From a bacterium (GTDB lineage: Bacteria; Planctomycetota; Planctomycetia; Kolteriales; Kolteriaceae), in the NCBI GenBank assembly GCA_019753235.1, contig JAIELF010000006.1:27041-91040 (forward strand): a stretch of 64,000 nt of DNA, in the 5' to 3' direction. Of the stretch, positions 25,357 to 48,187 are shown in pieces (the first letter of the stretch is position 1; the number at the start of each line of letters is the position of its first letter). The position numbers and the translations under genes are program-made. The notes under the pieces are model-generated. The model was not told where the DNA came from, did not search any database, and worked only from the letters and a program-made list of their open reading frames with translations.

Positions 25357-25857
25357 ATGTTCGTCCAGGTTTATCAACTTCGCCGAAAACAGGTCCTCGC
25401 GATGTCGCTTGAGGATTGCTGGGATTTCTTCGCTTCACCGATGAATCTCTCGACGATAACGCCTCCTTGGCTCGGCTTCGAAGTTCTCTCGATGGACTGG
25501 GACAAAATGTACCCGGGCATGATCCTGCAGTACTACGTTCGGCCTCTGCTGGGGATTCGGCTCCGTTGGGTCACCGAGATCACGCATGTCGAGCCGAGGA
25601 CCATGTTCGTCGATGAACAGCGTTTCGGGCCCTACAAGATGTGGCACCATCAACATCATTTTCGCCCCACGCCGAGCGGAATCGAGATGACCGACATCGT
25701 TCACTACGCAATTGGCTACGGACCGCTGGACCCGCTTATGAATAGCCTGGTCGTCCGAAATCGATTGGAAGAGATCTTCTCGTTTCGCTTTAACACTTTG
25801 GAAAAGATGTTTGGAGCCGGAAGCAGTAAGGTTGCCGCCAATCTTCCACTTTCCTGA
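25357..25857 (+). CDS. SRPBCC-superfamily (START/polyketide-cyclase-like fold) protein
   Basis: The last 166 aa of track ORF 24823-25857: CWDFFASPMNLSTITPPWLGFEVL ... LRWVTEITHVEPRTMFVDEQRFGPYKMWHHQHHF ... DIVHY. This is a conserved pattern of a widespread SRPBCC family. The upstream part of the ORF is antisense to pyrB. Confidence 0.75.
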   Translation: MFVQVYQLRRKQVLAMSLEDCWDFFASPMNLSTITPPWLGFEVLSMDWDKMYPGMILQYYVRPLLGIRLRWVTEITHVEPRTMFVDEQRFGPYKMWHHQHHFRPTPSGIEMTDIVHYAIGYGPLDPLMNSLVVRNRLEEIFSFRFNTLEKMFGAGSSKVAANLPLS

Positions 25858-25992
25858 GTGAGGAAAAGTGTGGGTAGTCGGCGAATCCGTTTCGTCGATC
25901 AGCGGAAGGCCTCCTTGAAAATAGAAACGATGAGAGTTCCACTACCGACTGCTCATAGAGTGGAGACATTTTTCTTCTAGAGGAACGAAAAC

Positions 25993-26790
25993 GTGTTCGA
26001 TTCTGGATCGCATTGGTCTGGCCGATGGGTGTTGAGTGGGTTGTTCATGTTTCTGGGCGGAGTTCAAGCAAAGGAGCCGCCTGGTCCTGATGCGTCGGTC
26101 ATGATTCAGCGAGGTGAACAGTTCCTTGTGCAGATGTTCGATCGTTCGATGGATTTGCTTCCCGAGTTTCCTGGTTCAACGACGTATTGGCTTTATCACG
26201 ATAATTACTTGGCTGCCAAAATGCTGGAGAAGGTCGATCCCATTTTGGCGGCAAAGATTCGCGCGAGAATCCAATCCTTTGGCGTGGCTACTTCGGGAAA
26301 GATTGAGATTCTTTTTGGCGAGTTGCAGGGGCCGCCGAGGTTTTGGCAATTCGATCTCTCGGTAGTGGATCAGATCGGCGACAAGGTCATCAAGACCGAA
26401 CGAGTGACCGACCGAGAATTGAAAGGTTGGGAAAAGTATGCCGACCTGTTGGCGATGCGTGTGATCGGTCAGCCTCGCGATGCCCAAGCGAACGATTCTT
26501 TCGAGAAGCTGGTATCGCTCTGGGACGGTCGGGGTTTTGCCGATCCCGCGACGAAGCTTCAAAGGATTTACGCGACTTACAAGCTTGCCCTTGCCCTCAT
26601 TGCATCACAAAAGATCGATCGACCCCTTCCGTTTCGGAAAGAACTTCTCTCTCGATTGCAGAGTCAGCAAGCGAGTTCAGGAGGTTGGATCACCGATTTT
26701 GATCCGGCCGGCAATCCGCGAGGCTTTGCCAACGTTGAAACGACGTGCATGGTTTTGCTCGCTCTTCAAGGCGTGACGATCAACGATTGA
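25993..26790 (+). CDS. secreted protein, possibly alpha/alpha-toroid (prenyltransferase/terpene-cyclase-repeat-like)
   Basis: GTG start, signal-like RWVLSGLFMFLGGVQA, helical repeat character, and a QQASSGGW motif resembling the Q..DGGW repeats of toroid proteins. The family assignment is tentative. Confidence 0.5.
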   Translation: MFDSGSHWSGRWVLSGLFMFLGGVQAKEPPGPDASVMIQRGEQFLVQMFDRSMDLLPEFPGSTTYWLYHDNYLAAKMLEKVDPILAAKIRARIQSFGVATSGKIEILFGELQGPPRFWQFDLSVVDQIGDKVIKTERVTDRELKGWEKYADLLAMRVIGQPRDAQANDSFEKLVSLWDGRGFADPATKLQRIYATYKLALALIASQKIDRPLPFRKELLSRLQSQQASSGGWITDFDPAGNPRGFANVETTCMVLLALQGVTIND

Positions 26791-26898
26791 CAGTGTTTGA
26801 TTCGACCTCTTCGTTTGAACGGTGCGAAGAAGGAAAGCGTTCGTAGATCGGCATCTTCATCCACAATCGAACGTCGGTCGCCGAGCGAAGGGGCCTTG

Positions 26899-27660
26899 TC
26901 ACGCGACGTCGTTGGCCCATTCTTTTCGGATCAGATCGAGCAAGACTTCGCGATTCTTCGGCTGATCCATGAAGAAGTGGTCGCCGGGAACGGTGTGGCA
27001 TTCGAATCCTCCCCCCGCGTGCATCGACCAGCCTTCGATTTCATTCTTCAAGACGTAGGCGTCGTCTTGTCCGGTGAAGGCGACGATGGGGCATGAAACA
27101 CCTTCGCCGGGCGAGAAAACGTATAGTCCATCGAGCTTCAAATCCGCTCGCAATGCGGGCAGCAGTAGTTGCATCAGTTCCTCATGGTCGAGAACCTCGC
27201 TCGGGAAAGCGCGTAAGCTGCGAAGGAACTCGCGAACTCTCTCAAGCGGTTGTTCGTGAAGCGTTTGATCTCTCGACACCATGTGCGGAGCGCGCCGGGC
27301 GGCCACGAAGAGCTGGTCAGGCTGCGTTCGAAACTCGCGGGCGAGTCTCTTCGTGACTTCGAACGCCACCAGCGATCCCATGCTGTGGCCATAGAAAGCG
27401 AACGGCACATCCGTGAGTGGTTCAATGGCTTCGACAATCGGCTCGACAAGATCGGCGAGCGAATCGACAGGGGATTCACTCATGCGACCGGGGCGCCCTG
27501 GAAGTTGAAGAGATTGGATCTCCACGGTTGGGGGGACAAGATCGACCCAGGGTTTGAAAATAGCCGAGGATCCGCCGGCATAGGGAAAGCAGAATAGCCG
27601 AGCCGCGGGCTCTTCCACCGTTTTGGGCGAGGTCAGCCATGCCTCGGGATGATGGGTCAT
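26899..27660 (-). CDS. type II (discrete) thioesterase
   Basis: RLFCFPYAGGSS, nucleophile elbow GHSMGS, C-terminal GDHFF. 253 aa. It begins 32 nt after the permease stop, so it is probably co-transcribed. Confidence 0.88.
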   Translation of the reverse strand: MTHHPEAWLTSPKTVEEPAARLFCFPYAGGSSAIFKPWVDLVPPTVEIQSLQLPGRPGRMSESPVDSLADLVEPIVEAIEPLTDVPFAFYGHSMGSLVAFEVTKRLAREFRTQPDQLFVAARRAPHMVSRDQTLHEQPLERVREFLRSLRAFPSEVLDHEELMQLLLPALRADLKLDGLYVFSPGEGVSCPIVAFTGQDDAYVLKNEIEGWSMHAGGGFECHTVPGDHFFMDQPKNREVLLDLIRKEWANDVA

Positions 27661-27692
27661 ATCCTTTTCCCTTTTTTCAGGCGTTTGCCGAC

Positions 27693-28808
27693 TTACCGCA
27701 GGAGTTCGGCAGGATCGACATTAAAGAGGGATCGCAGCGCGAGCAGACCGGACGCCAGCGCCACCCCTAGGACGATCGCCGCCGTCGCCGCCAGCAGTGA
27801 CATGGGTATGTCAATCTGCGTGCCGATGAGTATTCCCATCCACTGAAAAGCGACGGCCAATGGAAGCCCGATCGCCAAGCCGACCAATCCGATCACCAGC
27901 GATTGTTGCAGCACGAAGAGGTTCATTCGCCAGCCGGGCACGCCGAGAGACTTGAGGACTGCCAATTCTCGAAGCATGCTCGCGGTCGCGGAGTAGAGGG
28001 TTTGACTGGTGACGACGGCGCCGACGAGAAGGCCCAGTAGTGCAGTGAACCCGACCGCCAGGCCAGACTTGGTTTTCAGAATCCAGTACCATCGCGACTG
28101 CGCGGAGAATTCATTTTTGCTGAGGACGTCGATGTCAGGGATTTCACGAAGTGCATTCATGATGGGGGCGACTTTGTCCTCGCTGGTCGCGCGAGCGAGG
28201 ATGTAAGTTGCCTCGTAATCCTTGTAGAAGAGCATCTTCTTCGCGGTTGGGATAGAACAAAAGACGTAACAGCCAGTCATGCTTGGCATGTTGTTGAGGA
28301 AGCCGACCACGCGCACCTTGTAGCCATGAATCTCGGCCACGTCGCCGAGCTTCTCTACACCGAGTTTTTCTTTGTCGGTGCGATCGATGGCGACGGCGCC
28401 CGGTTCGGACAGAGCGACCATTAACTCCGGCGAAAGCTGGGCCAGCGGCCCCAATCCGCGATCGCTGAGGTTCTGCCCACAGAGAATCACCAGCACCGTC
28501 CCCGCACGAGGATTCCACCATCGCGTGAACTCTTGAACGTACTCATCGGTCTGAGCGACATCGGGAATCATCAGCAAGCGATTGCGAAACCGATTGCTGA
28601 TGGGTCCGCCGTTGTCAGCCGAGGGCGTGTGCTTGGCCGCGATCCAAATCTGCGCTTCTGAAACGTCGACAGGGGCGCTGACCGTCGCCACCAACCCAAC
28701 GAGGACACCTCCCTGGACCGCCATCAAGACCGCACTAAAGGCAACCGCGAGCATCCCCGCCATGTATCGGCGTCGCTCGAACCAGAGTGTCTGAATCGCG
28801 TACTGCAA
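27693..28808 (-). CDS. DevC-like (MacB/FtsX-type) ABC exporter permease
   Basis: 371 aa: N-terminal TM, about 200-aa periplasmic domain, C-terminal FtsX 3-TM bundle (LAVLKSLGVPGWRM ... LRSLFNVDPAELLR). TTG start. Confidence 0.85.
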   Translation of the reverse strand: MQYAIQTLWFERRRYMAGMLAVAFSAVLMAVQGGVLVGLVATVSAPVDVSEAQIWIAAKHTPSADNGGPISNRFRNRLLMIPDVAQTDEYVQEFTRWWNPRAGTVLVILCGQNLSDRGLGPLAQLSPELMVALSEPGAVAIDRTDKEKLGVEKLGDVAEIHGYKVRVVGFLNNMPSMTGCYVFCSIPTAKKMLFYKDYEATYILARATSEDKVAPIMNALREIPDIDVLSKNEFSAQSRWYWILKTKSGLAVGFTALLGLLVGAVVTSQTLYSATASMLRELAVLKSLGVPGWRMNLFVLQQSLVIGLVGLAIGLPLAVAFQWMGILIGTQIDIPMSLLAATAAIVLGVALASGLLALRSLFNVDPAELLR

Positions 28809-28902
28809 TTTAATTCAACCATTCCGCTAGCGTATGGTGCTCAGGGCATCACTTTTCGACGTCGGCGTCATCCATCGGGGGCGGGTAACCCTGCGGACCT
28901 GG

Positions 28903-29019
28903 TCAACGAGCCTTTCTTCGCGAGGGCCGATCTCCGACCAAACGACAGGCGAAGAAAAGGAACACCAGCATGATAGCCGTCACAAGCGAAGTCGCCAAAG
29001 AGCAGGATTCAACAGGCAT
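28903..29019 (-). CDS. candidate 38-aa transmembrane micro-protein (speculative)
   Basis: My own reading of the 262-nt gap between the MFP and permease genes gives ATG 29019 ... TGA 28905-28903, encoding MPVESCSLATSLVTAIMLVFLFFACRLVGDRPSRRKAR (one TM helix and a basic tail). It is below the ORF-track length cutoff and has no clear Shine-Dalgarno. Confidence 0.2.
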   Translation of the reverse strand: MPVESCSLATSLVTAIMLVFLFFACRLVGDRPSRRKAR

Positions 29020-29070
29020 GCTCGATGGAGCCGGCAGCGAGGCAGGCTCAACGAAGGGGAAGGATGTTTT

Positions 29071-30294
29071 CTAGGAGGACTTGGCGGGCGGACTCGTCGC
29101 GGCATGGGCGGCCGGCGGAGCCTGAAAGGTGACACGAACCCGCTGACCGATGCGAAGCATTTGCGGGTCTTTCGGAAGATCGACAATGCATTCGACCGTC
29201 GGAACATCGCTTACTTCGAAGACTTTGTTCCAAATGGTGCGACGCGGAGCAACCCAGGTAGAACAGCGACGGACTTGTCCGTCCCATTCCTTGCCATCAA
29301 AATTCTCGTTGTGAATCACCACCGAGGCACCCTCGGCAATCCGGTCTGCAAATTCCTGGTCGACTTCACAGCGAACAATGAACGGTTTATCGGGACAGAA
29401 CCAGATCGTCGGCGCCATCGTCGCGCTTAGAATCTGCCCCACACCAACTTGAATTCGAAGAACTCGGCCGTCCGAGGGAGCAGTCAGCGTGTGATTGGTA
29501 AGTTCCTCTTTCGCGATGGAAAGCTTCGCCAAAGCAGCGGACTCGGAGGCTTCAGCGGAACGAACCAGCAATTGCGGGTCGGCCGCTTCCGCCTCGGCAA
29601 GTTGTTCTTTGGAGATACGAAGCATCGCCTGCAATTCGATGAGTTGATCCTTAGCCGAGAGGAAAGTCTCCTCAGCAACACCTTGCTTGGGTCGAAGAGC
29701 TTCTAGCTTGTTGGTCTGACGCTCGGCCGACTGAAGGCGTGATTCGGCCGCCAATACCGACTGACGAAGTTGTTCGATCTTATGCTTGTGATTCTGCGCG
29801 CCCTCTTTGGAGCGAAGGACTTGAATGCCCGAATCTTTGACGGCAGCCTCGGCTTGTTCAACATGGAGCTTGGCAAGCGTCGAATCAAGGACGACGATCG
29901 CATCACCCTTCTTGACGCTGGCCCCCTCTTGCACGGGAATCAACGTCACCATGCCCGAAGCTCGCGGCGTCAGCGGAACCGTACCACCCTCTACGTCAAT
30001 CGAGCCCGTGGCAACGACGGCGTTTTCCTTCATGATGCCAGAATAGGCAACAGGCAATGAGCTCGCTCCGACACTGGCGGCCAGTGCCGGCTGCGGTCCA
30101 CCAGGAATTCCCTGGCGAAATTCGCTCATGCTTGCCGCGACGAGAATCGCCACCCCTAAAAGGGCGCTCGCCGATCCGGTGATTATCTTCCAGGTTGCCA
30201 ACCCGTTTTTCCTCATTTTGGCCCGTCGAGAGCCACGCTTCTGTTCTACTACTATGCCGCCGGCTTGCAACGCCGGGTCATTGTAGTCGGCCAT
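29071..30294 (-). CDS. HlyD/DevB-like membrane fusion protein
   Basis: 407 aa: N-terminal TM anchor, lipoyl-like half motifs (VKKGDAIVVLD), a long coiled-coil hairpin (AEAAVK ... LEALRPK ... LAEAEAA), and a beta-barrel C-terminus. Confidence 0.85.
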   Translation of the reverse strand: MADYNDPALQAGGIVVEQKRGSRRAKMRKNGLATWKIITGSASALLGVAILVAASMSEFRQGIPGGPQPALAASVGASSLPVAYSGIMKENAVVATGSIDVEGGTVPLTPRASGMVTLIPVQEGASVKKGDAIVVLDSTLAKLHVEQAEAAVKDSGIQVLRSKEGAQNHKHKIEQLRQSVLAAESRLQSAERQTNKLEALRPKQGVAEETFLSAKDQLIELQAMLRISKEQLAEAEAADPQLLVRSAEASESAALAKLSIAKEELTNHTLTAPSDGRVLRIQVGVGQILSATMAPTIWFCPDKPFIVRCEVDQEFADRIAEGASVVIHNENFDGKEWDGQVRRCSTWVAPRRTIWNKVFEVSDVPTVECIVDLPKDPQMLRIGQRVRVTFQAPPAAHAATSPPAKSS

Positions 30295-30469
30295 TCCGGA
30301 CGAATTTGCGCCACCCTCAAGTTTGATCGGTCCGGTTGTGCCAATTCTTCAGTCATCATCCTTTTAGTCGAGATGGTCATTCCGAAAAAGTGGTTATTGG
30401 CACCTCTACGTCCGAAAAACCTCCCGCTAGCGACCGACCCCGGTCCACCGGCCCGCCGCGAGCATTCTG

Positions 30470-30580
30470 TAAACCATTTTGCCATATGTGTTTATCAAAA
30501 TATCCACGATCCTGGTTAGGCGTCATCCAGGCGATTTCAGCAATGCGATGAAAGTGCATTAATATACACAGTTTGCGTCG
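30470..30580. promoter_or_regulatory. AT-rich core of the 610-nt divergent intergenic region (candidate promoters for the PKS and the exporter/TE operon)
   Basis: This is locally the most AT-rich stretch around the PKS: TTGCCATATGTGTTTATCAAAATATCC and TTTCAGCAATGCGATGAAAGTGCATTAATATACA, with TAATAT at 30560-30565. The hexamers are only partial matches to sigma70 consensus, and I cannot resolve the -35/-10 pairs. Confidence 0.25.
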
Positions 30581-30904
30581 ACTTGGGGGGATGTCGAGCT
30601 TGGATGGACTTCCGATGGGCGATTCCTAGACTTGGGCATGTCATTGTCCGGGAACTAACCCGTTTTGCTGATTAAACTGTGACGCCAGCGGATGTTGGAT
30701 TCGCGGTGGTCACGGGTGGGTCTTTGGCCGAGGTTGGTCTTCTCTTAGCAGACGCCTGCAATCGAGACTCGCCCAAGGATTGACCCGACTCGACAGACGG
30801 GCTCCAAAAGCGGAGCTTTCAGCCCCGTGACTGTCGGCGGCCGAGCCCCAGGGCCGGCCTTCTCGCCCGAGAGATCAACCGAGGGATTGAGGAATTGCCC
30901 CAAT

Positions 30905-33900
30905 ATGACTCCTACCAGCCGACCTCTTGAACAGATTCCCTTCCAGAACCTCGTCGAGGTATTGCGATTCCGGGCTCAGCAGCAGCCCGAGCGGATGGCG
31001 ATCAAGTTTCTTACCGATGGGGAAGAGGCTCATACTTCTTGGACGTACGAGCAACTTCAGCGTCGCTCGATGCAGATTGCCAATCATCTTTGCCGACATG
31101 CCGAGCCTGGTGACCGGGTCTTGTTGGTCTTTCCACCAGGGCTGGACTATATCGCCGCCTTCTATGGCTGCTTGTACGCAGGGTTGATCGCGGTGCCGAC
31201 CTATGCCGCCCGATTAACTCGTTCTTCATCGAAGCTCCTGAGCGTTCTCGAAGATAGTCAGGCACGCGTCGTTCTGACGACGGCTCGGCTGATGGAAGGT
31301 CTGCCGGCCGATTTGGCCGAGGTGGTGCACGGCACCCACTGGATGGCGGTCGAAGATGTTCCAGCGTCGGCAAGTGACTCGTTCGACTGCCCCGAGATCA
31401 CTCGTGACGATGTCGCCTTTCTGCAGTACACCTCCGGTTCTACCGCAGCCCCGCGCGGCGTGATGGTGACGCATGGCAACCTGTTGCACAATCAGTCGGT
31501 GATTGCAGAGAAGTTTCAGTCCACGGCCGACTCGGTCGGTGTCATCTGGCTTCCCCCTTATCACGACATGGGCTTAATCGGTGGAATCTTGCAGCCGGTC
31601 TACAGCGGCATGCCGGTCATCTTGATGCCGCCCCTCTCTTTCATTCAGCGACCTTTCCGCTGGTTGAAAGCGATTTCCGATCACCGCGCTTCCGCCAGCG
31701 GCGGGCCTAATTTCGCGTACGACTTGTGCGTCGAACGGATATCGCCCGAGCAGCGCGCCACGCTGGATCTGAGTTCTTGGAAGGTTGCATTCAACGGGGC
31801 CGAGCCGATCCGAAGCGAGTCCCTGCATCGCTTTGCTGAGACTTTCGCCGAGTGTGGCTTTCGGCGCGAGGCGTTTTATCCCTGTTATGGCTTGGCCGAG
31901 TCGACCCTTTTGGTCACCGGTGCAGACTGCCAACAAGGCGCCATCGAAGCAACGATCGATCCGGTTCGACTCGAACAAGCCGAGGCGGTTGCCGACCATT
32001 CACCCTCCGCTCGACGATTGGTTGCCAGCGGCACCGCGGCTCGCGGCCAAAGCGTCATCATCGTCGACCGGGCGACCGGCGGTCCCGCACCCGAGGGTCG
32101 CGTCGGCGAGATTTACATCAGTGGTCCAAGCGTCGCCAAAGGGTACTGGAATCGGCCCGAAGAGACTCGCGAAACGTTTGAAGCTCGTGTGGTCGGCCAA
32201 GAGGATTTGTTTCTTCGAACCGGGGATCTTGGTTTCTTTGCGGAAGGACAGCTCTACGTCACGGGTCGGCAAAAAGATCTGATCATCGTTCGTGGATCGA
32301 ATCATTATCCGCAGGATATCGAAGCGACGGCGACGCAGAGCCACGACTCGCTCAAGGGGGGACGCGGAGCGGCTTTCTCCGTCGATGGAACGGATCAAGA
32401 GCGGCTTGTTCTCGTCCATGAAGTCACATCGCGCGATGCATCCCAGTTCGACGAGATCCTCACCGCGATCACCCGAGCGATCGCCCTCGAACATGAATTA
32501 CAGGTCTCCGAGATTGTCCTCGTTGGTCAGCACCGAGTCCCGAAAACATCGAGCGGAAAAATTCAGCGAAGGGCTTGTCGCGAACAATTCTTAAAGGGTG
32601 AACTCTCGGGCGTCCTCGCTTCTTGGAAAACAGGACAAGCACCAACGTCTCTGCGTGACAGTCGACTGTCACTGCCGGCGGGCGAGAAGTCGGACGTGCT
32701 TGGTGCGGACTTTTACCGATTCGTTCTCGATCCTGATTACTTGGTCGATAGCGCCGCCCTCTGGGAGGGAGCCGACCAGTTGTCCGGGGCCCAGACCAAC
32801 AAGTTCGTTCGCTTGGCCGAGCTATCGGATCTACGTCCCGATACGGACGTTCTCGATGTCGGGTGCGGTTGGGGCGGATTCCTCAAGTATGCCGTCGATT
32901 CCCTTGGCTCGCGGTCGGTCGTCGGATTGACCCTCTCACCCGAAGAAGCCGCTCACGCCGGCAGCCTGATGGGCCCGCGCGGGAAGGTTCTTGTTTCCTC
33001 GTGGAGCGATTTCTCGGCCGATCAATCTTTTGATTCGGTTGTCTGCGCGGGGGCGATCGAGCATTTTGTGACCCTTGCCGATCGAGCTCGCGGCGAAGCG
33101 GTCAAACGATACCGATCGTTCTTCAAACGAGCACGACGCTGGATGCGCGGCACGGGTCGGCTCGCGATCGAAACGCTGATCAGTGTTCGCCGGGCCGACT
33201 CGCCCCAGGCGTACCAGGATGTTTCGACGCTGGCCAAAATGTTCCCGCATTCGTCGATTCCATCGATTGATGATCTGCGGGACGCATGCGAGGGTCTATT
33301 TGATCTGGTCGAGTCGGATTCGATTCGACGGGACTATCAACGGACGCTGGTCGCTTGGTTGGGAAGGCTTCACGAGCATCGATCCGAGATCCTCGAAAAG
33401 TTCGGCATGGAGACATTCGAAAAGTTCGACCGATACTTCGAAGCGAGCTTGCGACAAGCGAAAGAGGGTTATGTCGATCTGATCATGCTTTCTCTCCAGC
33501 CGTTGAATGTCAGCCCCGAGATGCTCGAGGAGGATGCCGACTCCCGCGTTACGCGCTCGCCTCTATCGGCCCGCTCCGCCACTCGATCGATGGTCGAGAT
33601 TCAAGAGTGGATCACTCAATCGCTGGCCCGGAAGCTTAGAGTCGAAACAAGTGATATCGACGCTCGCCAGCCTTTCTCGACTTTCGGTCTCGATTCGCTG
33701 GCGATGGTCAGCCTGGTCGGTGAACTGGAGACTTGGCTTGAACAGTCTCTCTCGCCGACGCTGGCGTGGGACTATCCTTCAATTGAGACGTTGTCGGCAT
33801 TCCTGGCCGGCGAGACGACCGGCGATCGGCAAAGCGAAGAGCCGGCCGCCTTGGCTGAGCCAATCGCGATCATCGGGATGGGATGTCGTTTCCCTGGAGC

Positions 33901-40390: not shown

Positions 40391-40951
40391 TTACTTGCCG
40401 AGTTCGGTTTCAATCGCCTTAGTCAGCTCGGTCGATTCCGGTTTAACAGCCGACCGATATCGGCCGACAATTTTGCCATCCTTCGAGATGAGAAACTTTT
40501 CAAAGTTCCATTTCACGGGGCCAGCAAAGTCAGGGTCGCTCTCTTTGCTCGTCAGATGCTTGTAGAGATCACAGGCCTCGTCGCCGTTGACATCGACTTT
40601 AGAGAACATATCGAAACCGACTTTGAACTTCGTCTTGCAGAACTCCTGAATCTCGCCTTCCGATTTGGGCTCTTGTTTACCGAACTGGTTGCAAGGGAAG
40701 CCGAGAACTGCCAAGCCCTTATCTCCATACTTCTCATGGAGGGCTTGCAGGCCTTCGTACTGATTGGTGTAGCCGCAATAGCTGGCCACATTGACGACCA
40801 GCAGAACCTTTCCCTTGTACTTGGTCAGGTCGACGTTCTCGCCGGTAATGGTTTTCGCAGAAAAACTGAGCACTTTGGGGGTCTCCTCCGCCAGAACGGC
40901 GGTAGCAACCAGACCCAGCATCGCCGTTGAAAGTAGCTTTCTCATCCGCAT
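40391..40951 (-). CDS. glutathione peroxidase, secreted/periplasmic form (Cys type)
   Basis: VNVASYCGYT (Cys codon TGC at 40777-40775, not TGA), LGFPCNQFGKQEP, WNFEKFL. N-terminal signal MRMRKLLSTAMLGLVATAVLA. AGGAG precedes ATGs at 40951 and 40945. The track ORF opens at 41020. Confidence 0.9.
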   Translation of the reverse strand: MRMRKLLSTAMLGLVATAVLAEETPKVLSFSAKTITGENVDLTKYKGKVLLVVNVASYCGYTNQYEGLQALHEKYGDKGLAVLGFPCNQFGKQEPKSEGEIQEFCKTKFKVGFDMFSKVDVNGDEACDLYKHLTSKESDPDFAGPVKWNFEKFLISKDGKIVGRYRSAVKPESTELTKAIETELGK

Positions 40952-41222
40952 TCTCCTGTTGAACTGATTTCCCGCCCATTCAAACTGATTCCACCGTATG
41001 GTAGTGCAACCTATCCACATCGCCAGCCAACCGAGGGGTGAATTTTTGGGGCGATAACCGCCAAAGCGCGCTCGGTCGATGGCTTATCGGCGGATGTTCA
41101 TGAAACCTTCGTCGTTTCACGCGGCGGCGACGAGCCCGGATTTATGGGGCGACAGTCGGGTCGGTCCTGTTGGTGACATCGCCCGTTTGCTATTGGACGC
41201 GAACTCCCGGTGGCCGTCGGGA

Positions 41223-42260
41223 TCAGGTTAAACGATCTCGCTCGACGCCGAGGGTTTGCCGGACACTCCAGAGTGGTCGCCTCATGACGTTTTCATGAAT
41301 CCGACCGACGTAAGCTCCGATGATTCCCATGCAAAAGAGCTGTACGCCGCCGATGAATAGGAGGGAAATAATCACCGAGGCGGTCCCGGGGACGTATTCG
41401 ACTCCCCATTGCTTGAAGGTTGCCGGCGCCATTCGAATGGCCAGCGTTAGGACCGCACCGAGGAACGCGATCACCGAAACCAGCGCCCCGAACACGGTGG
41501 CGAAATGGAGTGGAATTCGGGAGTTGCTCAGGACACCGTCGGCAGCAAGCTTCATCAACTTCCAATACGAGTACTTCGTTTGGCCGGCTTGACGGGCGGC
41601 TCGTTCGTACGGAAAAAGCGATTGACGAAACCCGACCCAACTTCGCAAGCCACGAATGAAAGGCCGACTCTCGGGCATCTGCACGATCACATCGACCACT
41701 TGCCTATCCATCACGCAGAAATCCCCCGCGTCCAGCGGCAGATCAAGCTCGGCAATCAGCGACAAGAGCCGATAAAATGAGAAATACAGCGAGCGTTTAA
41801 GCGGGCCTTCTTTTCGGTGACGCCGCACGCCAACGACAACATCGAATCCCTCTTTCCATTGACCGATCATCTGGCCCGCAACCTCGGGTGGGTCTTGGAG
41901 GTCGGCATCAAGGACCGCGACGACATCGCCGCTTGATGCTTGTAGCCCCGCTCGAAGCGCTAACTGATGCCCGAAATTGCGACCGAGGCGAATCCCTTTC
42001 CAGCGAGGATTGCGAGCATGGATATTTTGAATGATCGACCAGGTTTCGTCCGTCGATCCATCGTCGACGAGAATCACTTCATAGTTTTCACACCAATGAG
42101 CGATCTCCTTCTCGAGCCGATCGAAAAGCTTGAACAGTACCTCCATCTCATTGAGGCATGGAATTACCACCGACACACTCCGAAGCATCCGGCCAGACGG
42201 GTCGGGTAGCTTGTGGGTCGCGGCAAGTTCCGCAGTGGGGCCGGCAGTAGGTTGATTCAA
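41223..42260 (-). CDS. GT2 glycosyltransferase of the polyprenyl-phosphate sugar transferase type (ArnC/GtrB/DPM1-like)
   Basis: VSVVIPCLNE, VDDGSTDET, LDADLQDPPE, RGLRSWVGF, plus two C-terminal TM helices. TTG 42260 (AGGAAA upstream) or ATG 42188 (MLRSVSVVIP). Confidence 0.88.
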   Translation of the reverse strand: MNQPTAGPTAELAATHKLPDPSGRMLRSVSVVIPCLNEMEVLFKLFDRLEKEIAHWCENYEVILVDDGSTDETWSIIQNIHARNPRWKGIRLGRNFGHQLALRAGLQASSGDVVAVLDADLQDPPEVAGQMIGQWKEGFDVVVGVRRHRKEGPLKRSLYFSFYRLLSLIAELDLPLDAGDFCVMDRQVVDVIVQMPESRPFIRGLRSWVGFRQSLFPYERAARQAGQTKYSYWKLMKLAADGVLSNSRIPLHFATVFGALVSVIAFLGAVLTLAIRMAPATFKQWGVEYVPGTASVIISLLFIGGVQLFCMGIIGAYVGRIHENVMRRPLWSVRQTLGVERDRLT

Positions 42261-42412: not shown

Positions 42413-43180
42413 TCAGGATGCGTCGGCCGAGCGGATTGCGCTTCCCAGAACTCTTTTCCCGACGGCCGTCACGTTGTCCGGGGAGACTTCCGTGATGCAT
42501 GCCAGGAGGTTCCCGGAGAGGAAATCGGGGTTTTGCGAGGCAAAGAACCGGGCGACGCGATCATCGCGGGACCAAGTTCGGGCGACAAGTTCGGGGTTGC
42601 GGTACGGCGTGCAGGCGGGGCCCGAGATGATGCCGCGAACGGGGTCGTATCCCTCGGGGAACTTCTGCGCGATGAACTGTTGCAAGATCCGCCGAATCGG
42701 CACGGGGGTCGGCCGATCTGGGTGCGGATAATATTCTCGAAAAAAACCTGGAAGAAACTGGTAAGCACGGTGGGAGGAGGCGGCAAAGACCCAATAGACA
42801 TGCTCGGCCGAGAGCTGGCGTGCCAATCCAAAGGTGTGCTTTGCCCACGTCGATAGCCAAGCCCTTTCACCCATGTAGTCTGGTGACAGGAGGGTGTCAC
42901 CCGAGTAGACGGCGGCGACGGGCGGGTCCTCGTCGACACTCCACAGCACGCGTGACGTGGTGAAGCCTTGGATCCTCTGCAGATCATCCTCGATCAAGAC
43001 GACCGAGTCTTTATCGTCGAGATCCGCTTCGAACTTGGTCGGAGAGACGTTCTCGTAGTGATGCGATAGAAGTTCATACATTCGCGCCCGCTGCGACGGC
43101 TCGATCTGCGTCGGCGTCACAATTCGAGAAAGCGTTGGTCGGCGAGCCGGCCGAGCGTCGTCGGTGAGAAATTCATTCAT
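42413..43180 (-). CDS. hypothetical 255-aa cytoplasmic protein, possibly a GNAT-fold acyltransferase relative (unverified)
   Basis: Clean ATG ORF. MYELLSHHYENVSPTKFEADLDDKDSVVLIEDDLQRIQGFTT and HRAYQFLPGFFREYYP remind me of a family annotated as GNAT-like N-acyltransferases. I cannot confirm this without an HMM search. Confidence 0.6.
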   Translation of the reverse strand: MNEFLTDDARPARRPTLSRIVTPTQIEPSQRARMYELLSHHYENVSPTKFEADLDDKDSVVLIEDDLQRIQGFTTSRVLWSVDEDPPVAAVYSGDTLLSPDYMGERAWLSTWAKHTFGLARQLSAEHVYWVFAASSHRAYQFLPGFFREYYPHPDRPTPVPIRRILQQFIAQKFPEGYDPVRGIISGPACTPYRNPELVARTWSRDDRVARFFASQNPDFLSGNLLACITEVSPDNVTAVGKRVLGSAIRSADAS

Positions 43181-43308
43181 GGAGAGCGCCTAGCCCCGGG
43201 GCGAATGGGAGTGCACACCAGTCACAAGGGAATTCCCTCGATCCCTCTTTCTGAGTTCAACTCGCTTCAAGTATAGCCGAGCGGGAAAGAGGTCGCTTGT
43301 ATCTCTTC

Positions 43309-43332
43309 GAAAAGGGATGATCGGGTCATCCT
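43309..43332 (-). terminator. weak candidate terminator after the devA-like gene
   Basis: On the minus strand, GGATGA-CCCGA-TCATCC (6-bp stem, plus-strand 43316-43332) is followed by CTTTTCG. The stem is short and the T-tract is only 4 nt. Confidence 0.3.
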
Positions 43333-43351
43333 ATGGACGATTTTCGACGTT

Positions 43352-44506
43352 TTACCGCAATGGGATATCGATTCCACCTTGGAAGCGCCGACTGAAGAAG
43401 ACTTGCAGCAGGCGGTCCTTGAACGACTGGCTGGTGTCCATCGCTTTATCGAAGTCCTCCTTCGTGAGCGAAAGACAATGAATGTCGTTGACCGCTCGAA
43501 CCGACGCGGTGCGCGGACGGTTGGTGATAAGAGAAATTTCGCCGAACACATCGCCGGGGGTCAATTGGCGAAGTGTCTGCATCTTGCCGAGTTCCTCTTT
43601 GACAACCTCGGCGGATCCAGACTTCATCAAATAGAGCTTATCCCCCTCATTTCCTTGACGAATGATCCAGGATCCCGCAGGAAATCGTTCTTCCATCATT
43701 TTCTGCGAGAGCTCGGCCAGCGTGGCTGGGGGAAGCTTCGAAAGAACATCGACGCGCGAAAGGAATTCACAAGTGGCCATCGAGTTCTGCACGTCGATAT
43801 CGGTGGCGACGCGCCCATCGACCATATTCACGATCCGGCTGGCAACATCAAGGATTCGATTGTCATGGGTGACGAGCAAGATCGAACAACCATCCTTGTG
43901 AGCCAATTCTTGCAACAGGTCGACCACGTCTCGGCTTCGTTCTTTATCGAGCGCCGCCGTCGGTTCGTCGGCAAGGATCAGCTTGGGTTTGGCGACGAGC
44001 GCCCGTGCGATGGCCACCCGTTGACGCTGCCCGCCCGAAAGTGCCTCTGGCTTGTATTGGAGTCGATGACCCATTCCGAGCCGATCGAGTATCTCACTTG
44101 CTCGGCGGACCTTTTCTTCTTTCGGAATCTCTAACAAATCAAGCGGTAAGCAAACGTTCTGCAACGCCGTGAGTGATTCAAAAAGATTATGCGCTTGGAA
44201 GATAAAGCCGATCCCTCGGCGAACGGCGACTAACTCGTTTCGCGATAAGCCGGTCATCTGTCGCGACAGGACCGTCATACGCCCATCTTGAGCTGACCTG
44301 AGTCCACCGATGAGCGTTAAGAGCGTCGTTTTTCCCGAACCGGACGGCCCGGTCATGATGACCAGTTCACCCGGCCAGACACGCAGTCGTACATCGTACA
44401 AGACTTGTTTGCGATTCTCGCCCGAGCCGAAATGATGGTTGACCTGGTCGCACCAGACGAGCGGCGCTCCATCAAATTCGGGCACAAAATCAGTCGATGG
44501 ATTCAT
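43352..44506 (-). CDS. DevA-like ABC exporter ATPase fused to a C-terminal cyclic-nucleotide-binding domain
   Basis: I prefer ATG 44506 (MNPSTDF), which overlaps the upstream stop by 1 nt (TGATG). The track ORF opens at 44572. Walker A GPSGSGKTT, LTLIGGLRS (DevA-like), LSGGQRQR, ILADEP, VTHD. These are followed by a cNMP domain with FGEISLITNRPRTASVRAV. Confidence 0.9.
   Translation of the reverse strand: MNPSTDFVPEFDGAPLVWCDQVNHHFGSGENRKQVLYDVRLRVWPGELVIMTGPSGSGKTTLLTLIGGLRSAQDGRMTVLSRQMTGLSRNELVAVRRGIGFIFQAHNLFESLTALQNVCLPLDLLEIPKEEKVRRASEILDRLGMGHRLQYKPEALSGGQRQRVAIARALVAKPKLILADEPTAALDKERSRDVVDLLQELAHKDGCSILLVTHDNRILDVASRIVNMVDGRVATDIDVQNSMATCEFLSRVDVLSKLPPATLAELSQKMMEERFPAGSWIIRQGNEGDKLYLMKSGSAEVVKEELGKMQTLRQLTPGDVFGEISLITNRPRTASVRAVNDIHCLSLTKEDFDKAMDTSQSFKDRLLQVFFSRRFQGGIDIPLR
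43370..43775 (-). other. cNMP-binding (CAP/PKA-type) domain at the C-terminus of the ABC ATPase
   Basis: FLSRVDVLSKLPPATLAELSQKMMEERFPAGSWIIRQGNEGDKLYLMKSGSAEV ... GDVFGEISLITNRPRTASVRAV. This is a canonical beta-barrel with a phosphate-binding cassette FGE..L....PR(T)A(S)V, encoded at about 43550-43493. Confidence 0.85.
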
Positions 44507-45651
44507 CAGAAGACCTCCGCGGGGTCTGCTTTCATGACGCGACCGACGGCGATCAATCCAGAGATGACGCACATCACGACGGTCAACACCGAGACTAAGA
44601 CGATTCGCATAAGGGTGAGTTCCATGTGAAGCCCCGTCAGTTGCGTCATGATCGAATAGAAGGCCTGGCTGGCGAAAAGAGCGGGGACAAGTCCCAAAAC
44701 CGCCAACAGGATCGCTTCTTTCAAGACGACGCCGACAAGGTAACCATTGCTAAAACCGATTGCCTTGAGCGTGGCGAATTGAGGCAAGTGGTCGTTGATC
44801 TCGTTGTAAAGAATCTGGTAGCAGATCATCACGCCGATGGCGAACCCAACGATCAGCCCCAGCGTGAAAATGAAACCGGTTGGCGTCATCTTCGACCAGA
44901 ATCTTCGCTCGATCTGATCGTACTCGTCAATCGTGAAGACGTCGATGTCGCTGGGCAAGGCGTCGCGAATGGCTTGCTGAACCTTGGCCGGTGACTCGCC
45001 CGATTTCAATCGGATCAAGCCGACAGAGATCTGGTCGGGCGCCGATAGTGGGAACAGCGCACGGTAGGTTGATTGACTAGCCAGAACGTTTCCGTCCATC
45101 TTAAAGTCGGCTCCGAGATTGAACGTTCCTAGAACGCGAACCCGGCGAGCACCAAGCTCGGCCTCGTTGCCGGCGACCGGCGTTCCAAAGAAACTTCGAG
45201 AGCCCCGGTCGAATAGAATCGTCATCGGCTCGTGCAGCAAGCTTGACTGCGCAACAACTTCGTCCAAAAGAAAGGGTGGATGATCTGGATCGATGCCGAT
45301 CACGCGAATGACATCTTGTCGACCGGTCTGAGGATGTCGCCAAAGCGTGCTGTCCATCGAGACGCCTGTCGTGCGGGCGACGCCCGGAACATCGCGGGCT
45401 TGGATGATCCTTTTTTCCAGAAAGAATTCTTCCAGTGTCAGGTTGTGCTTCGTTCGATTCACCATGAGGAGGTCGGCATCGAACAGGCGAATGCCTAGGG
45501 TTTGACTGTCGAAGAGCCCGGTTAAAAATCCGAGCTGCATGAACATCAAAAGAACCGCGAACGCGATCCCCATCATCGCTAAGAGAAGTCTGCTCTTGCG
45601 ATGGGTCAGCATGTACCACGTCAGTGGGACGCGGTTGGCGTTACCGATCAT
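44506..45651 (-). CDS. DevC-like ABC exporter permease (paralog 2 of the tandem pair)
   Basis: 381 aa from ATG 45651, which overlaps the upstream stop (ATGA). It has an N-terminal TM, a periplasmic domain and a C-terminal FtsX bundle (FATLKAIGFSNGYL ... GRVMKADPAEVF). Confidence 0.88.
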   Translation of the reverse strand: MIGNANRVPLTWYMLTHRKSRLLLAMMGIAFAVLLMFMQLGFLTGLFDSQTLGIRLFDADLLMVNRTKHNLTLEEFFLEKRIIQARDVPGVARTTGVSMDSTLWRHPQTGRQDVIRVIGIDPDHPPFLLDEVVAQSSLLHEPMTILFDRGSRSFFGTPVAGNEAELGARRVRVLGTFNLGADFKMDGNVLASQSTYRALFPLSAPDQISVGLIRLKSGESPAKVQQAIRDALPSDIDVFTIDEYDQIERRFWSKMTPTGFIFTLGLIVGFAIGVMICYQILYNEINDHLPQFATLKAIGFSNGYLVGVVLKEAILLAVLGLVPALFASQAFYSIMTQLTGLHMELTLMRIVLVSVLTVVMCVISGLIAVGRVMKADPAEVF

Positions 45652-46778
45652 GCGAAGAGCTCCGCGGGGTCGGCGGTTCGAACTCGCCTGGCGGCGAGAA
45701 TGCTGGAGGCGGCACACATCACCAGCGTCAGCGTGAGGACCAATGCAGCTCGGTCGAACGTCATCCAGACGGGAACCTTGGCGGCATCGCGAAGAATCTT
45801 GTACAGCAGCAAGCCCCCCACGTACGCCGGCACGAAACCGACCAGGGCATAAATGAACCCTTCAGTCACCACCAACAAGTACACGGCCGAGTCGCTATAT
45901 CCCATCGCTTTCATCGTGGCGAGTTCTTTGATATGGCTTGAAACCTGGGTCGAGAGGATCTGATAGAGAGTCACCGCGCCGACAATGAAACCGACGACTG
46001 CCCCTGCACGGAACATGATGCCGATCGGCTTGATGTTGACGAAGTAATTGACCTCAGCGGCGGTGATTTGTGGACGGGTCCAAACACGAACGTCGGGTCC
46101 CAATGCCACGCTCAGGCGATGCGCCACCCGGTCGATCTCTTGGCCAGGCTTCACGCGAAGGAAGATCAGGTTGGGGCGATCGACCTGCCGACCAGGAAGC
46201 AGTCGACAATAGGTCAAGTCGCTCACGAGGGCGTCGGCTCCCGCGATGAACCCGGTGCCGAGCTTATAACTTCCCACGATATCGGCGTGGCCCGAGCCGA
46301 TATCGACAGTGGAACCAACCTCGCGCGGGCCGAATTCGCCGCGAGCTTCGCTATCCATTAAGACGGTGTCTGGACGTTGCAGCAGACTGGCTTGCTGTTG
46401 GATCGCCGGGTCAAGCATCGGCGGATCATCAGGATCGATGCCGAGCACAAGAATACCCCGCCTGAGCTTGTCCTCGAGACTTCGAATCAGCGTGAAACTT
46501 GCAAACAAAGGCTTGGCCGACTCGATGCCTGGAACATCTTTGACGCGCTCGGCAACATCGCGAGAAAGGGTCCCGGCGTTGACCATGAAAACGTATTGTG
46601 GACTGGTTAGGACGAGATCAAAATCAATCGCGCGATAGACAATGTCCGCGCTATTCTCGGCGGCGGAGAAGATTCCAAATTGCATGAACATCAGCAGGAT
46701 AGAGAACGCGACCCCTCCCAAGGAAGCAAGGGCGCGCCACTTTTTGTGCGTCACGTTCTGCCAAGCAATTTTTAGCAT
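45648..46778 (-). CDS. DevC-like ABC exporter permease (paralog 1 of the tandem pair)
   Basis: 376 aa with the same architecture (LATMKAMGYSDSAV ... ARRVRTADPAELFA). Its ATG 46778 overlaps the devB-like stop by 1 nt. Confidence 0.88.
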   Translation of the reverse strand: MLKIAWQNVTHKKWRALASLGGVAFSILLMFMQFGIFSAAENSADIVYRAIDFDLVLTSPQYVFMVNAGTLSRDVAERVKDVPGIESAKPLFASFTLIRSLEDKLRRGILVLGIDPDDPPMLDPAIQQQASLLQRPDTVLMDSEARGEFGPREVGSTVDIGSGHADIVGSYKLGTGFIAGADALVSDLTYCRLLPGRQVDRPNLIFLRVKPGQEIDRVAHRLSVALGPDVRVWTRPQITAAEVNYFVNIKPIGIMFRAGAVVGFIVGAVTLYQILSTQVSSHIKELATMKAMGYSDSAVYLLVVTEGFIYALVGFVPAYVGGLLLYKILRDAAKVPVWMTFDRAALVLTLTLVMCAASSILAARRVRTADPAELFA

Positions 46779-47989
46779 CAGGGACTCGCGGCCGGTGTCG
46801 CGATCATGACATCGACTTGCATTCCGATCCGCTGCGGCGCGACGCCCGGCTTATCGAGACGCAGGCGAACTTCGACGACGCGCGTATCCAGTCGAGCGGT
46901 CGGATCCAGGCCCAGGACCTCGTTCCGTTTGACCATCGAACCAATGCGATCGACCGTCGCTTCGAGAGGCTCCGCCAGGGCCAAGCTGGTGATGGTCGCC
47001 TTCTGGCCAACCTTTACCCGAGCGATGTCTGCTTCGTAGACCTCCGCGATGACGTAGAAGACATCATTTTGTCCGAGTGTGATCATGGGACGCTGCCCGA
47101 TGGTTTCACCCGCTTGAATGTTGACTTCGAGAATCTGTCCATCGACGGGGGATAGCACGGTGGCCCGGGCGAGTTCGGCCTCGATGAGGGAAACTTGTCG
47201 CTCGGCTCCACTGACATCGATCAGTGCCAGCGACTTATCCAGGCCAGCCTTGGTGCTGTCGTATTTTTTTTCCGCTGCCAGTTGGTTGATCTCTTTTTCT
47301 TTCTCCATGACGCGAAGCTTCGCGCGAAAGCCCCGGAGTTGTTCGCGATATCGATCGACCACGAGCGTTTGCCGATCGATCTCTGCTTGGGGCAAGTTCT
47401 TCGGGAGTTTCTCGAGATCCCGCTCGGCCTGCTGTAACTGATTCTCGGCAACCTTGATCTCGGCATCCTGAGCTTCAATCTGGATGGGGACGATCTCGGC
47501 GGGGCGTCGCTTCGCCAATTCCGTCTCGGCCAGCAGGGCCTGAGCGTGCTTTTTCTCTTTGTCGACCATGTCGCGAGCCTGTTCGAGTTTTCCGCGAGCG
47601 ACTTCCAACTGTTTGGAAAGGACGCCTTCGCCGAGGCATTCGACGACCTGTTCGCCGGCTCGCACGATTTGGCCTGGCTTGACTAGAACCTTTTTGACTC
47701 GGTCGCCGATGGTGCCGGTGATGATGATGACCCCTTCGCCCGGTTCGATGCGTCCCAGGGCCGAGACGGTATCGCGATGGGGTGGTTTGACTGGCTTGCC
47801 CGTGTCGCTTGCCGGTGCGGGACTGGCAGGGCTACAACCTGTGGTCAGTCCCGCGAACAACACCGGCAAGGTGATCATTCTCCAAGTCATTCCCGAATGG
47901 GATCGGCGTGCGCTCGTTGCCGACGATATCGAACAAGTCCGATGATTGATCAACGGTTGGTCCTTCTGCAATGTCACATCTCGCGTCAT
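46778..47989 (-). CDS. DevB/HlyD-like membrane fusion protein
   Basis: GRIEPGEGVIIITG, VKPGQIVRAGEQV, a long coiled-coil (LEVARGKLEQ ... LQQAERDLEK ... ), and a beta-barrel C-terminus. A lipobox-like LFAGLTTGC follows internal Met codons at 47890 and 47878, which are possible alternative starts. Confidence 0.88.
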   Translation of the reverse strand: MTRDVTLQKDQPLINHRTCSISSATSARRSHSGMTWRMITLPVLFAGLTTGCSPASPAPASDTGKPVKPPHRDTVSALGRIEPGEGVIIITGTIGDRVKKVLVKPGQIVRAGEQVVECLGEGVLSKQLEVARGKLEQARDMVDKEKKHAQALLAETELAKRRPAEIVPIQIEAQDAEIKVAENQLQQAERDLEKLPKNLPQAEIDRQTLVVDRYREQLRGFRAKLRVMEKEKEINQLAAEKKYDSTKAGLDKSLALIDVSGAERQVSLIEAELARATVLSPVDGQILEVNIQAGETIGQRPMITLGQNDVFYVIAEVYEADIARVKVGQKATITSLALAEPLEATVDRIGSMVKRNEVLGLDPTARLDTRVVEVRLRLDKPGVAPQRIGMQVDVMIATPAASP

Positions 47990-48001
47990 CGGTAAGTTTT
48001 C

Positions 48002-48187
48002 TTAGCAGTGATGGCAGCGAATGGTGTCGAAGATGTCCTTCTCTTGCTCGGCTTTCTCTTTGGCGTGATTGACCAAACAACGCACGGCTTTGCCGATGTC
48101 GGCCAGGTTGTACTTCACGACCATTTCTTTCAAGTAAGCGATGTCATCTTCATAGAGTTCAAGCGATTCGTTTCTCTTGGGAGACAT
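48002..48187 (-). CDS. 61-aa ribbon-helix-helix-like protein with a C-terminal CHHC tail (putative regulator)
   Basis: MSPKRNESLELYEDDIAYLKEMVVKYNLADIGKAVRCLVNHAKEKAEQEKDIFDTIRCHHC. The strand-helix-helix spacing is as in CopG/Arc/MetJ-type proteins. Its stop is 12 nt before the devB-like ATG. Confidence 0.5.
   Translation of the reverse strand: MSPKRNESLELYEDDIAYLKEMVVKYNLADIGKAVRCLVNHAKEKAEQEKDIFDTIRCHHC

Follow-up and report, generated by a model that had tools for sequence, protein, structure and literature searches.

Do a polyketide synthase (PKS), a glycosyltransferase and two sets of exporter genes that lie side by side on one stretch of DNA form a single system for the synthesis and export of a lipid, or do they belong to separate systems that adjoin one another? 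The question is raised by a stretch of 64,000 nucleotides from a bacterium of the family Kolteriaceae, Planctomycetota (assembly GCA_019753235.1, contig JAIELF010000006.1, positions 27,041 to 91,040), hereafter called the window. For its part between 25357 and 48187, an earlier note had proposed a heterocyst-glycolipid-like synthesis and export island outside the cyanobacteria. The reading that we favour, and consider on balance probable, is that two or three separate units are present: a fatty-acid-modifying PKS with its accessory genes (Unit A, ~25.3-40.3 kb), and an exporter block of the DevBCA type that is independent of the PKS (Unit B/C, ~40.4-48.2 kb, reaching ~53.8 kb), these being adjacent in a single planctomycete-like lineage. 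The data do not support the analogy with heterocyst glycolipids.

In this work, genes were called from a list of open reading frames (ORFs) and assigned to families by the Pfam and NCBIfam cut-offs. Loci for comparison, designated L001 and so on, were gathered via DevA homologues, via PKS homologues and by a genome-contig scan, and were scored by tblastn against the window proteins. Proteins of the window are recorded at NCBI as MBY0585864 to MBY0585874, encoded on a contig of 235 kb. The placement of the genes in the earlier note agrees with the ORF, Pfam and NCBIfam data, and a glutathione peroxidase gene (gpx) at 40391-41020 was added between the PKS and the glycosyltransferase. The GC content is level along the whole window, the flanks consist of housekeeping genes (purH, pyrB, pyrC, an aminotransferase, mnmA and exbD-like genes), and the named homologues of the window proteins come from Gemmatales, Gemmataceae, Pirellulales and Planctomycetaceae. 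The ~23 kb segment, part of a core-genome region in an uncultured planctomycete lineage, is probably made up of units that adjoin but can be separated.

Synteny of the synthase and the Dev operon

The PKS gene (30905-40297, + strand) and the four-gene DevBCA-type operon (43352-47989, - strand) are convergent. That related genomes should show synteny of the PKS with the exporters had been set beforehand as a test of the single-island proposal, and for the DevBCA-type operon this does not hold. In L007/L008, L095 and L096, the Dev block and the conserved 255-aa orphan gene that follows it occur with no adjacent PKS. The more distant loci L011 (Gemmatales), L093 and L094 contain the genes for DevC, DevC' and a DevA with a cyclic-nucleotide-binding (cNMP) domain, with no PKS, family 2 glycosyltransferase (GT2) or orphan nearby; a gene of the membrane fusion protein (MFP) type precedes the permeases in L093 and L094, and none is adjacent to them in L011.

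The clade loci used for the Dev-block matrix were L005, L007/L008, L009, L095 and L096, while L001 was sampled from the PKS side. The run of genes for a nucleotidyltransferase, a 505-aa membrane protein, a metallophosphoesterase, a tetratricopeptide repeat (TPR) protein, DevB-DevC-DevC'-DevA and the orphan is present in all five of the matrix lineages, except that the nucleotidyltransferase position is outside the L009 locus, which starts within the gene for the 505-aa protein. All six related lineages sampled retain the Dev block, with DevA identities to the window protein of 88% in L005, 77% in L007/L008, 76% in L095, 73-74% in L096 and 70% in L009. The PKS adjoins this block only in the window, L005, L009 and L001.

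The breakpoints vary. In L095 the conserved order ends after the GT2 gene, with dnaB and genes for ribosomal proteins next; it ends right after gpx in L096 and L007, where unrelated genes lie beyond. The GT2 gene follows the Dev run in L005, L009, L095 and L096 and is missing in L007/L008. It therefore stays with the Dev block and not with the PKS, since L095 and L096 keep it where no PKS adjoins. A joint loss of the GT2 gene and the PKS, suggested by L007/L008, was rejected because of the same two lineages. In L001 (GCA_036704275.1, 10001-23951), the PKS, GT2, permease and adaptor genes are split by frameshifts, reflecting assembly errors or pseudogenisation, and gpx is separated from the GT2 gene by an inserted B12-binding radical-SAM gene; the GT2 and orphan genes are present there, in frameshifted form, by tblastn.

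The polyketide synthase and its left-hand neighbours

The PKS is a single-module, highly reducing enzyme. Its ORF opens at 30827 (3156 codons), and the start is likely M27 (30905), because the homologue alignments begin near this residue. The Pfam domains follow one another in the order fatty acyl-AMP ligase (FAAL, 30971-32608), methyltransferase (MT) similar to cyclopropane mycolic acid synthases (CMAS, 32699-33484), first acyl carrier protein (ACP1, 33605-33805), ketosynthase (KS, 33857-34987), malonyl-type acyltransferase (AT, 35471-36382), dehydratase (DH, 36584-37465), enoylreductase (ER, 38261-39148), ketoreductase (KR, 39203-39739) and second carrier protein (ACP2, 40013-40240), all on the + strand. 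No release domain, either thioesterase (TE) or reductase (R), was detected in the PKS by Pfam. The catalytic motifs are all intact, and those of the AT domain (GHSVG and HAFH) are of the malonyl type, which makes methylmalonyl-derived branching unlikely.

The FAAL domain is similar over its full length to structurally defined FAALs rather than to acyl-CoA synthetases. The E-values are 1e-170 for 7r7e-g, 6e-140 for the Legionella FAAL (3kxw/3lnv), 1e-95 to 1e-70 for FadD23, FadD32 and FadD28, and 6e-85 for the E. coli FAAL (3pbk). Priming by a fatty acid, full reduction and a CMAS-family MT together make the modified long-chain lipid that the earlier note had expected a sound inference.

The MT domain scores 141.8 bits with PF02353 (cut-off 27), contains the SAM-binding motif VLDVGCGWGG (pattern VLDxGCGWG), and has MmaA2, PcaA, CmaA1/2 and the cyclopropane fatty acid synthase (CFAS) of E. 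coli as its nearest entries in the PDB. Canonical cyclopropane synthases are recognised by five bicarbonate-site positions, which in CmaA1 are C35, E140, H167, the I169 backbone and Y232. In an alignment with CmaA1 and CFAS references rebuilt from HMMER output, Ala takes the place of C35 and Glu that of H167, E140 and Y232 are retained, and ~10 residues are inserted after the EHF motif. With two of the five ligands replaced, cyclopropanation cannot be assumed. The eight homologous MT domains from L001, L012, L013, L014, L015, L016 and L021 have Gln at the H167 position and the same insertion. Judged from its sequence, the domain is a PF02353 member of a distinct subgroup.

Gln or Glu in place of His167 together with the insertion is common to the aligned MTs encoded in or beside FAAL genes at planctomycete, cyanobacterial and verrucomicrobial loci, and in L015 (Scytonema) three such MT copies stand in tandem, flanked by two FAAL genes. 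When the MT domain was searched exhaustively with HMMER, the matches were mostly stand-alone proteins of 280-300 aa or tandem MTs, at 30-39% identity, and only one of them lay in a long, PKS-sized protein. In the search anchored on the FAAL, PF02353 was found in 2 of 120 proteins among the matches listed. No description of a FAAL-CMAS fusion was found in the searchable literature, and a 2025 review of FAALs mentions neither cyclopropanation nor a FAAL-methyltransferase fusion. The loading module, in which FAAL, MT and ACP are fused and the CMAS active site is altered, is a modestly novel variant.

On the left, three genes form a run on the - strand that points away from the PKS. A type II thioesterase (26899-27660), for which the NCBI record MBY0585864 gives the name 'putative thioesterase', is a stand-alone protein that matches PF00975 at 140 bits over model positions 2-224 of 226, lies next to the PKS in both the window and L001 (77% identical), and has relatives at 31-43% identity in other FAAL-containing clusters. 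It is a probable release or editing enzyme for the PKS. At a distance of 32 nt on the same strand lies a MacB-type permease (27693-28808; PF02687 (FtsX) and PF12704 (MacB_PCD); 82-89% identical in L001), and upstream of this a periplasmic adaptor of the HlyD/EmrA type (29071-30294; HlyD_D23, HlyD_3 and Biotin_lipoyl_2), also syntenic in L001. Of the two DevBCA-type sets claimed earlier, only the right-hand one stands, with its DevB, DevC and DevA members above the family cut-offs. The left permease scores 76 bits with the DevC model TIGR01185 (cut-off 290), its best PDB matches reaching only E 1e-4, and the left adaptor scores 52 bits with the DevB model (cut-off 129). As no ATPase gene is present in the ORF list between 25.3 and 30.3 kb either, the left set is not a second DevBCA system. 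An orphan ABC ATPase of the MacB/DevA/FtsE type (19087-19842, +; PF00005; NCBIfam DevA 130, FtsE 127 and LolD 120 bits), ~7 kb from the left set and without an adjacent permease, could be the energiser of the left permease.

Two further genes on the + strand complete the left side: one for a small SRPBCC/START-like protein, a possible lipid binder (25354-25857; Polyketide_cyc 20.1 bits, under the 23.4 cut-off; syntenic in L001 and 67-75% identical), and one for a 265-aa protein with a hydrophobic N-terminus (25993-26790), which has no Pfam or NCBIfam match and is 56% identical and syntenic in L001. The SRPBCC, 265-aa, thioesterase, permease and adaptor genes, and thus the divergent run noted previously, are all retained with the PKS (~72% identical) in L001, the one other lineage in which synteny on the PKS side could be viewed. 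Since the pyrB/pyrC flank is conserved there as well, this synteny is weak evidence of a functional linkage. In the genome-contig scan, the best PKS match was 40% identical and no close relative of the window's species was found; a metagenome scan with the left permease returned a single 1.5-kb contig and added no PKS-side synteny.

From these data the following line of fatty acid tailoring is proposed for Unit A. The FAAL would adenylate a free long-chain fatty acid, probably a cis-unsaturated one, and load it onto ACP1. The CMAS-like MT would then use SAM to alkylate the double bond of the carrier-bound chain, giving a cyclopropane, a methyl or methylene branch, or a vinyl branch. The proposal of a FAAL-loaded, MT-modified chain draws on the precedent of FshF (PMC13548996). 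One fully reduced C2 unit, or more if the module acts iteratively, would be added by the KS, malonyl AT, DH, ER and KR domains, and the type II thioesterase, acting in trans from the divergent gene run, would free the acid. The MacB-type permease and HlyD adaptor may carry this acid to the envelope, perhaps driven by the ATPase at 19087-19842. The predicted product is a mid-chain-methylated, elongated fatty acid.

Distant PKS orthologues, 40-52% identical, were found in L012 (Planctomycetaceae, 8636-21736), L013 (Pirellula, 2527-14277) and L002 (Pirellulales, 10001-22229). They are collinear with the window enzyme (FAAL-MT-ACP-KS-AT-DH-ER-KR-ACP) and are fused to, or followed by, an NRPS (non-ribosomal peptide synthetase) module of the form C-A-T(-R). 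None of the thioesterase, MacB/HlyD, GT2 and Dev genes was found at these three loci by tblastn. PQQ-type and FG-GAP propellers precede the PKS in all three, a DUF1207 gene is present in L012 and L002, and a fatty-acid desaturase gene in L012. The three loci look like a conserved lipo-amino-acid cluster type of Pirellulales and Planctomycetaceae. The window itself encodes PQQ_2-type beta-propeller proteins at 53736-55172 (+) and 8113-10098 (-); the former shares ~30% identity with the propellers encoded immediately upstream of the distant PKS-NRPS orthologues, a similarity that does not establish orthology.

The Dev operon and its neighbours

The right-hand operon encodes a DevB-family MFP (46778-47989, -; TIGR02971 204 bits, cut-off 129), two DevC permeases and a DevA-family ATPase. 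The first permease paralogue, DevC' (45648-46778, -), scores 267 bits with TIGR01185, just below the cut-off of 290, in a full-length alignment; the second, DevC (44506-45651, -; a gene call of 381 aa), scores 338 bits. The two are ~32% identical to each other. As described previously, the genes overlap by 1-4 nt: the overlaps are 1, 4 and 1 nt, provided that 45651 is taken as the start of the second permease gene, in line with the JGI gene call. DevA (43352-44506, -; 384 aa; TIGR02982 325 bits, cut-off 295.8) has a C-terminal cyclic-nucleotide-binding domain (PF00027, 83.3 bits, cut-off 27.5) with an intact phosphate-binding cassette, FGEISL...RTASV, in the sequence FGEISLITNRPRTASV; this domain had gone unnoticed in the earlier note. 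PF00027 is present in 120 of 120 DevA homologues among those listed, and the fusion is therefore widespread in Planctomycetota-type sequences. In L094, a response-regulator/nucleotide-cyclase gene lies ~8 kb upstream. In the searchable literature, no description was found of a cNMP-DevA fusion or of DevBCA in Planctomycetes. The cNMP-sensor fusion on a DevBCA system with a heterodimeric permease is a modestly novel variant.

Directly downstream of devA, the 255-aa orphan (42413-43180, -) is found in every clade member sampled and always in this position, with a gap of 7 nt in L095 and L096. It forms only 8 clusters among 5.8 billion proteins and has no sequence-level match in Pfam, NCBIfam or PDB profile searches. 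Its AlphaFold2 (AF2) model (pLDDT 84.5, pTM 0.82) points to a GNAT-fold protein resembling acyl- or acetyltransferases: in Foldseek, 54 PDB structures matched at E<=1e-3, the 50 listed were all GNAT acetyltransferases or GNAT-fold proteins, with TM scores of just 0.3-0.57 over ~150 residues, and NatD, AAC(2') and Gcn5 were matched at E ~2e-5 with TM scores of 0.4-0.57.

Next in the same direction, the GT2 protein (41223-42260, -) aligns over residues 28-340 with residues 27-333 of GtrB from Synechocystis (sll0501, 5EKP; E 5e-73), the C-terminal membrane region included, and matches ArnC at E 2e-43, in agreement with its original assignment to the ArnC/GtrB type. Its scores with the PgfS (220 bits) and ArnC (165 bits) models are both under the equivalog cut-offs of 500 and 529. 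The full-length homology to GtrB and ArnC marks it as a glycosyltransferase of the polyprenyl-phosphate type, predicted to make a lipid-linked sugar donor rather than to glycosylate a fatty alcohol. The housekeeping peroxidase gpx (40391-41020, -; PF00255 147 bits) stands between this gene and the PKS, at the junction of the two synteny blocks.

Upstream of devB, a conserved 61-aa gene product ending in CHHC (48002-48187, -) has counterparts at the same position in L005 (77%) and L095 (49%); the ribbon-helix-helix label given to it earlier is unconfirmed, as no Pfam or NCBIfam model matched. Beyond it, the segment 48482-53838 (-) forms a conserved neighbourhood of genes for a sugar-1-phosphate nucleotidyltransferase (52318-53838, -; NTP_transferase and hexapeptide domains), the 505-aa polytopic membrane protein (50785-52302, -), a metallophosphoesterase and a small TPR protein. 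The 505-aa protein, known from its translation, has no Pfam or PDB profile match, and its single-sequence AF2 model (pLDDT 44) is unusable. Together with the GtrB-type GT2, the genes of this segment may constitute a route of envelope glycosylation. Scans of both gene runs for sigma-70 promoters and terminators gave results at chance level.

For Unit B/C, we thus propose a tripartite-type exporter, DevB-DevC-DevC'-DevA, with a cNMP-fused ATPase, continued by the orphan with its putative GNAT fold and the GtrB-type GT2, that would not depend on the PKS. The Dev block is probably an independent envelope exporter regulated by cyclic nucleotides, as far as domain content and gene order can tell.

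Competing explanations and known systems

If all of the genes formed one island, the PKS lipid would be glycosylated via the GT2 route and delivered to the outer envelope by both exporter sets and a TolC protein encoded elsewhere. That the genes are contiguous in four lineages (the window, L005, L009 and L001) and include a true DevBCA-family operon is consistent with this, as is the export of heterocyst glycolipids by DevBCA and a TolC homologue (PMC5985334). Another PVC phylum offers a parallel. In L058 (148-10684), from an Opitutaceae metagenome-assembled genome (Verrucomicrobiota), genes for a KS, an unassigned protein, a polysaccharide deacetylase, a TolC-like outer membrane efflux protein (OEP), a HlyD MFP and two DevC-like permeases share one strand and diverge from a FAAL-ACP gene, so Dev-type pumps can sit in FAAL lipid clusters of the PVC group. 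However, the Dev block has no neighbouring PKS in the three related and three distant loci named above, the GT2 remains with the Dev block in the PKS-less L095 and L096 loci and is of the GtrB type, with polyprenyl-phosphate as the acceptor, and the PKS and the Dev block are convergent with the peroxidase gene between them. The PKS, moreover, is not of the hgl type but one FAAL-primed module, and its orthologues elsewhere occur without such exporters. Pfam revealed no TolC-like or OEP-family gene among the window ORFs scanned, although such a partner could lie in another part of the genome. We regard the single island as quite improbable. Still less credence is given to its most elaborate form, a non-cyanobacterial counterpart of the heterocyst glycolipid system in which the PKS would make a mid-chain-modified very-long-chain fatty acid for the outer envelope, and the cNMP-gated DevBCC'A with its GNAT and GtrB partners would acylate or glycosylate the product and export it under second-messenger control.

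At the opposite extreme, neither pump would be dedicated to the PKS, whose product would be a cell-internal or membrane lipid or a diffusible metabolite of the fatty-acid type, and the left MacB/HlyD pair would be a general efflux or envelope system merely sharing a promoter region. The left set indeed lacks an ATPase and has only generic family matches, it keeps its place beside the PKS only in close relatives that are syntenic over the whole flank, and the distant orthologues are PKS-NRPS hybrids accompanied by propellers, DUF1207 and a desaturase, not by pumps. This explanation appears unlikely to us in view of the type II thioesterase, an accessory of PKS and NRPS systems, that is encoded on the permease's strand at a distance of 32 nt, and of the divergence of the whole run from the PKS start. 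A more specific role for the Dev block, which we hold to be possible though hardly the best bet, is the modification and export of an envelope glycoconjugate by the NDP-sugar enzyme, the membrane protein, DevBCC'A, the putative GNAT protein and the GT2, with the PKS uninvolved. The conservation of the whole block in six related lineages sampled argues for it, as do the homology of the GT2 to GtrB, which makes a polyprenyl-phosphate-linked sugar, the NTP_transferase/hexapeptide enzyme adjoining the 505-aa multi-helix protein, and a Wzz-family gene just downstream of the Dev module in L093. The 505-aa protein, however, has neither a Pfam or PDB match nor a usable model, and L007 keeps the rest of the block without the GT2.

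Several observations weigh against the separation of a fatty-acid-modifying PKS from an independent Dev block, or against parts of the scheme proposed for the former. The L058 locus shows a paired-DevC exporter with TolC adjoining FAAL/KS lipid genes within the PVC group. The PKS and the Dev block remain adjacent down to 70% identity in DevA and ~55-67% in the PKS (L009), longer than random neighbours often stay together. Where none adjoins the Dev block (L095, L096 and L007), a PKS may still be encoded elsewhere in the genome. For Unit A, the replacement of two of the five bicarbonate ligands leaves the chemistry of the MT uncertain, the left permease has no ATPase gene beside it, and the synteny of the left set with the PKS extends to two lineages, in which the pyrB/pyrC housekeeping flanks are syntenic too.

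The separate-units reading has consequences for both halves of the locus. If the FAAL-MT-ACP tridomain works as proposed, it is a compact, self-contained device for the site-selective alkylation of unactivated fatty-acyl chains, whose sole characterised relative is FshF, an enzyme acting in trans and reported in 2026, and the locus would indicate that uncultured planctomycete-like bacteria contain a modified fatty acid not yet described. The Dev-type (MacB-class) exporter with a cNMP-sensor-fused ATPase, widespread in Planctomycetota and seemingly unstudied, would link second-messenger signalling directly to envelope export. The main practical value of the analysis is negative: gene adjacency here should not be taken for a heterocyst-glycolipid-like synthesis and export island.

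The hgl island of Anabaena comprises hgdACB, hglTEAFGDCAB and all5343, and islands of this type have been defined as clustered homologues of at least 7 of 19 Anabaena genes, among which are the PKS set of the hglE type and hglT (PMC11804610). A glycosyltransferase of the HglT type joins the sugar to the aglycone. The window resembles the hgl/DevBCA-HgdD system in its DevB, DevC and DevA members, arranged in operon order with overlapping genes and with a PKS nearby, and in the broad concept of an envelope lipid exported by a tripartite system of the MacB type. By annotation, only the DevB/C-like (HgdB/C-like) proteins and generic PKS domains are shared. In contrast to the cyanobacterial system, the window has a single FAAL-primed polypeptide as its PKS in place of the hgl gene set (PMC11804610), a pair of DevC paralogues where that system has one, a cNMP domain on DevA and a GtrB-type glycosyltransferase; no TolC/HgdD gene turned up among the window ORFs scanned, and in relatives the Dev block occurs without the PKS. 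Among the type VII ABC systems, both MacAB-TolC and LolCDE share with the window the FtsX-fold permeases with a periplasmic core domain; MacAB-TolC has an adaptor in common with it, and LolCDE a heterodimeric permease pair served by one ATPase gene. The window differs from both in its DevBCA-specific family scores and in the cNMP-binding extension of its ATPase. The GT2 is homologous to GtrB (sll0501, 5EKP) and ArnC over its full length, including the C-terminal region, while remaining under the ArnC and PgfS equivalog cut-offs.

In mycobacteria, FadD(FAAL)-Pks lipid assembly lines work with the CmaA, MmaA and PcaA methyltransferases and with MmpL exporters. The window shares with them a FAAL-primed, highly reducing PKS, the action, predicted for the window, of a CMAS-family enzyme on cis double bonds, and the logic of an envelope lipid; in the window, however, the MT is embedded in the PKS, its Cys35 and His167 ligands are replaced, and the exporter is of the MacB/HlyD and not the MmpL type. 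The cyanobacterial olefin synthase Ols, with the architecture FAAL-ACP-KS-AT-KR-ACP-sulfotransferase (ST)-TE (PMC11730487), is likewise a single-module type I PKS with fused FAAL-ACP priming that uses a membrane-derived free fatty acid and one malonyl unit, whereas the window PKS has an MT in its loading module, a DH-ER-KR loop, and a type II thioesterase in trans in place of the ST-TE pair. The closest precedent for the chemistry comes from fischerazole: the FAAL FshA loads C16 acids on the ACP FshE, and the CMAS/CFAS-like FshF methylates the ACP-tethered cis-9-hexadecenoyl chain before it enters the PKS, giving a vinyl branch and some cyclopropane (PMC13548996). Compared by description, the two systems share FAAL loading on an ACP and a CMAS-family MT that acts, or in the window would act, on a tethered cis-unsaturated chain before extension; the window has a full reductive loop downstream and neither an NRPS nor halogenases, and the three activities that are separate in FshA, FshE and FshF are fused at the N-terminus of its PKS.

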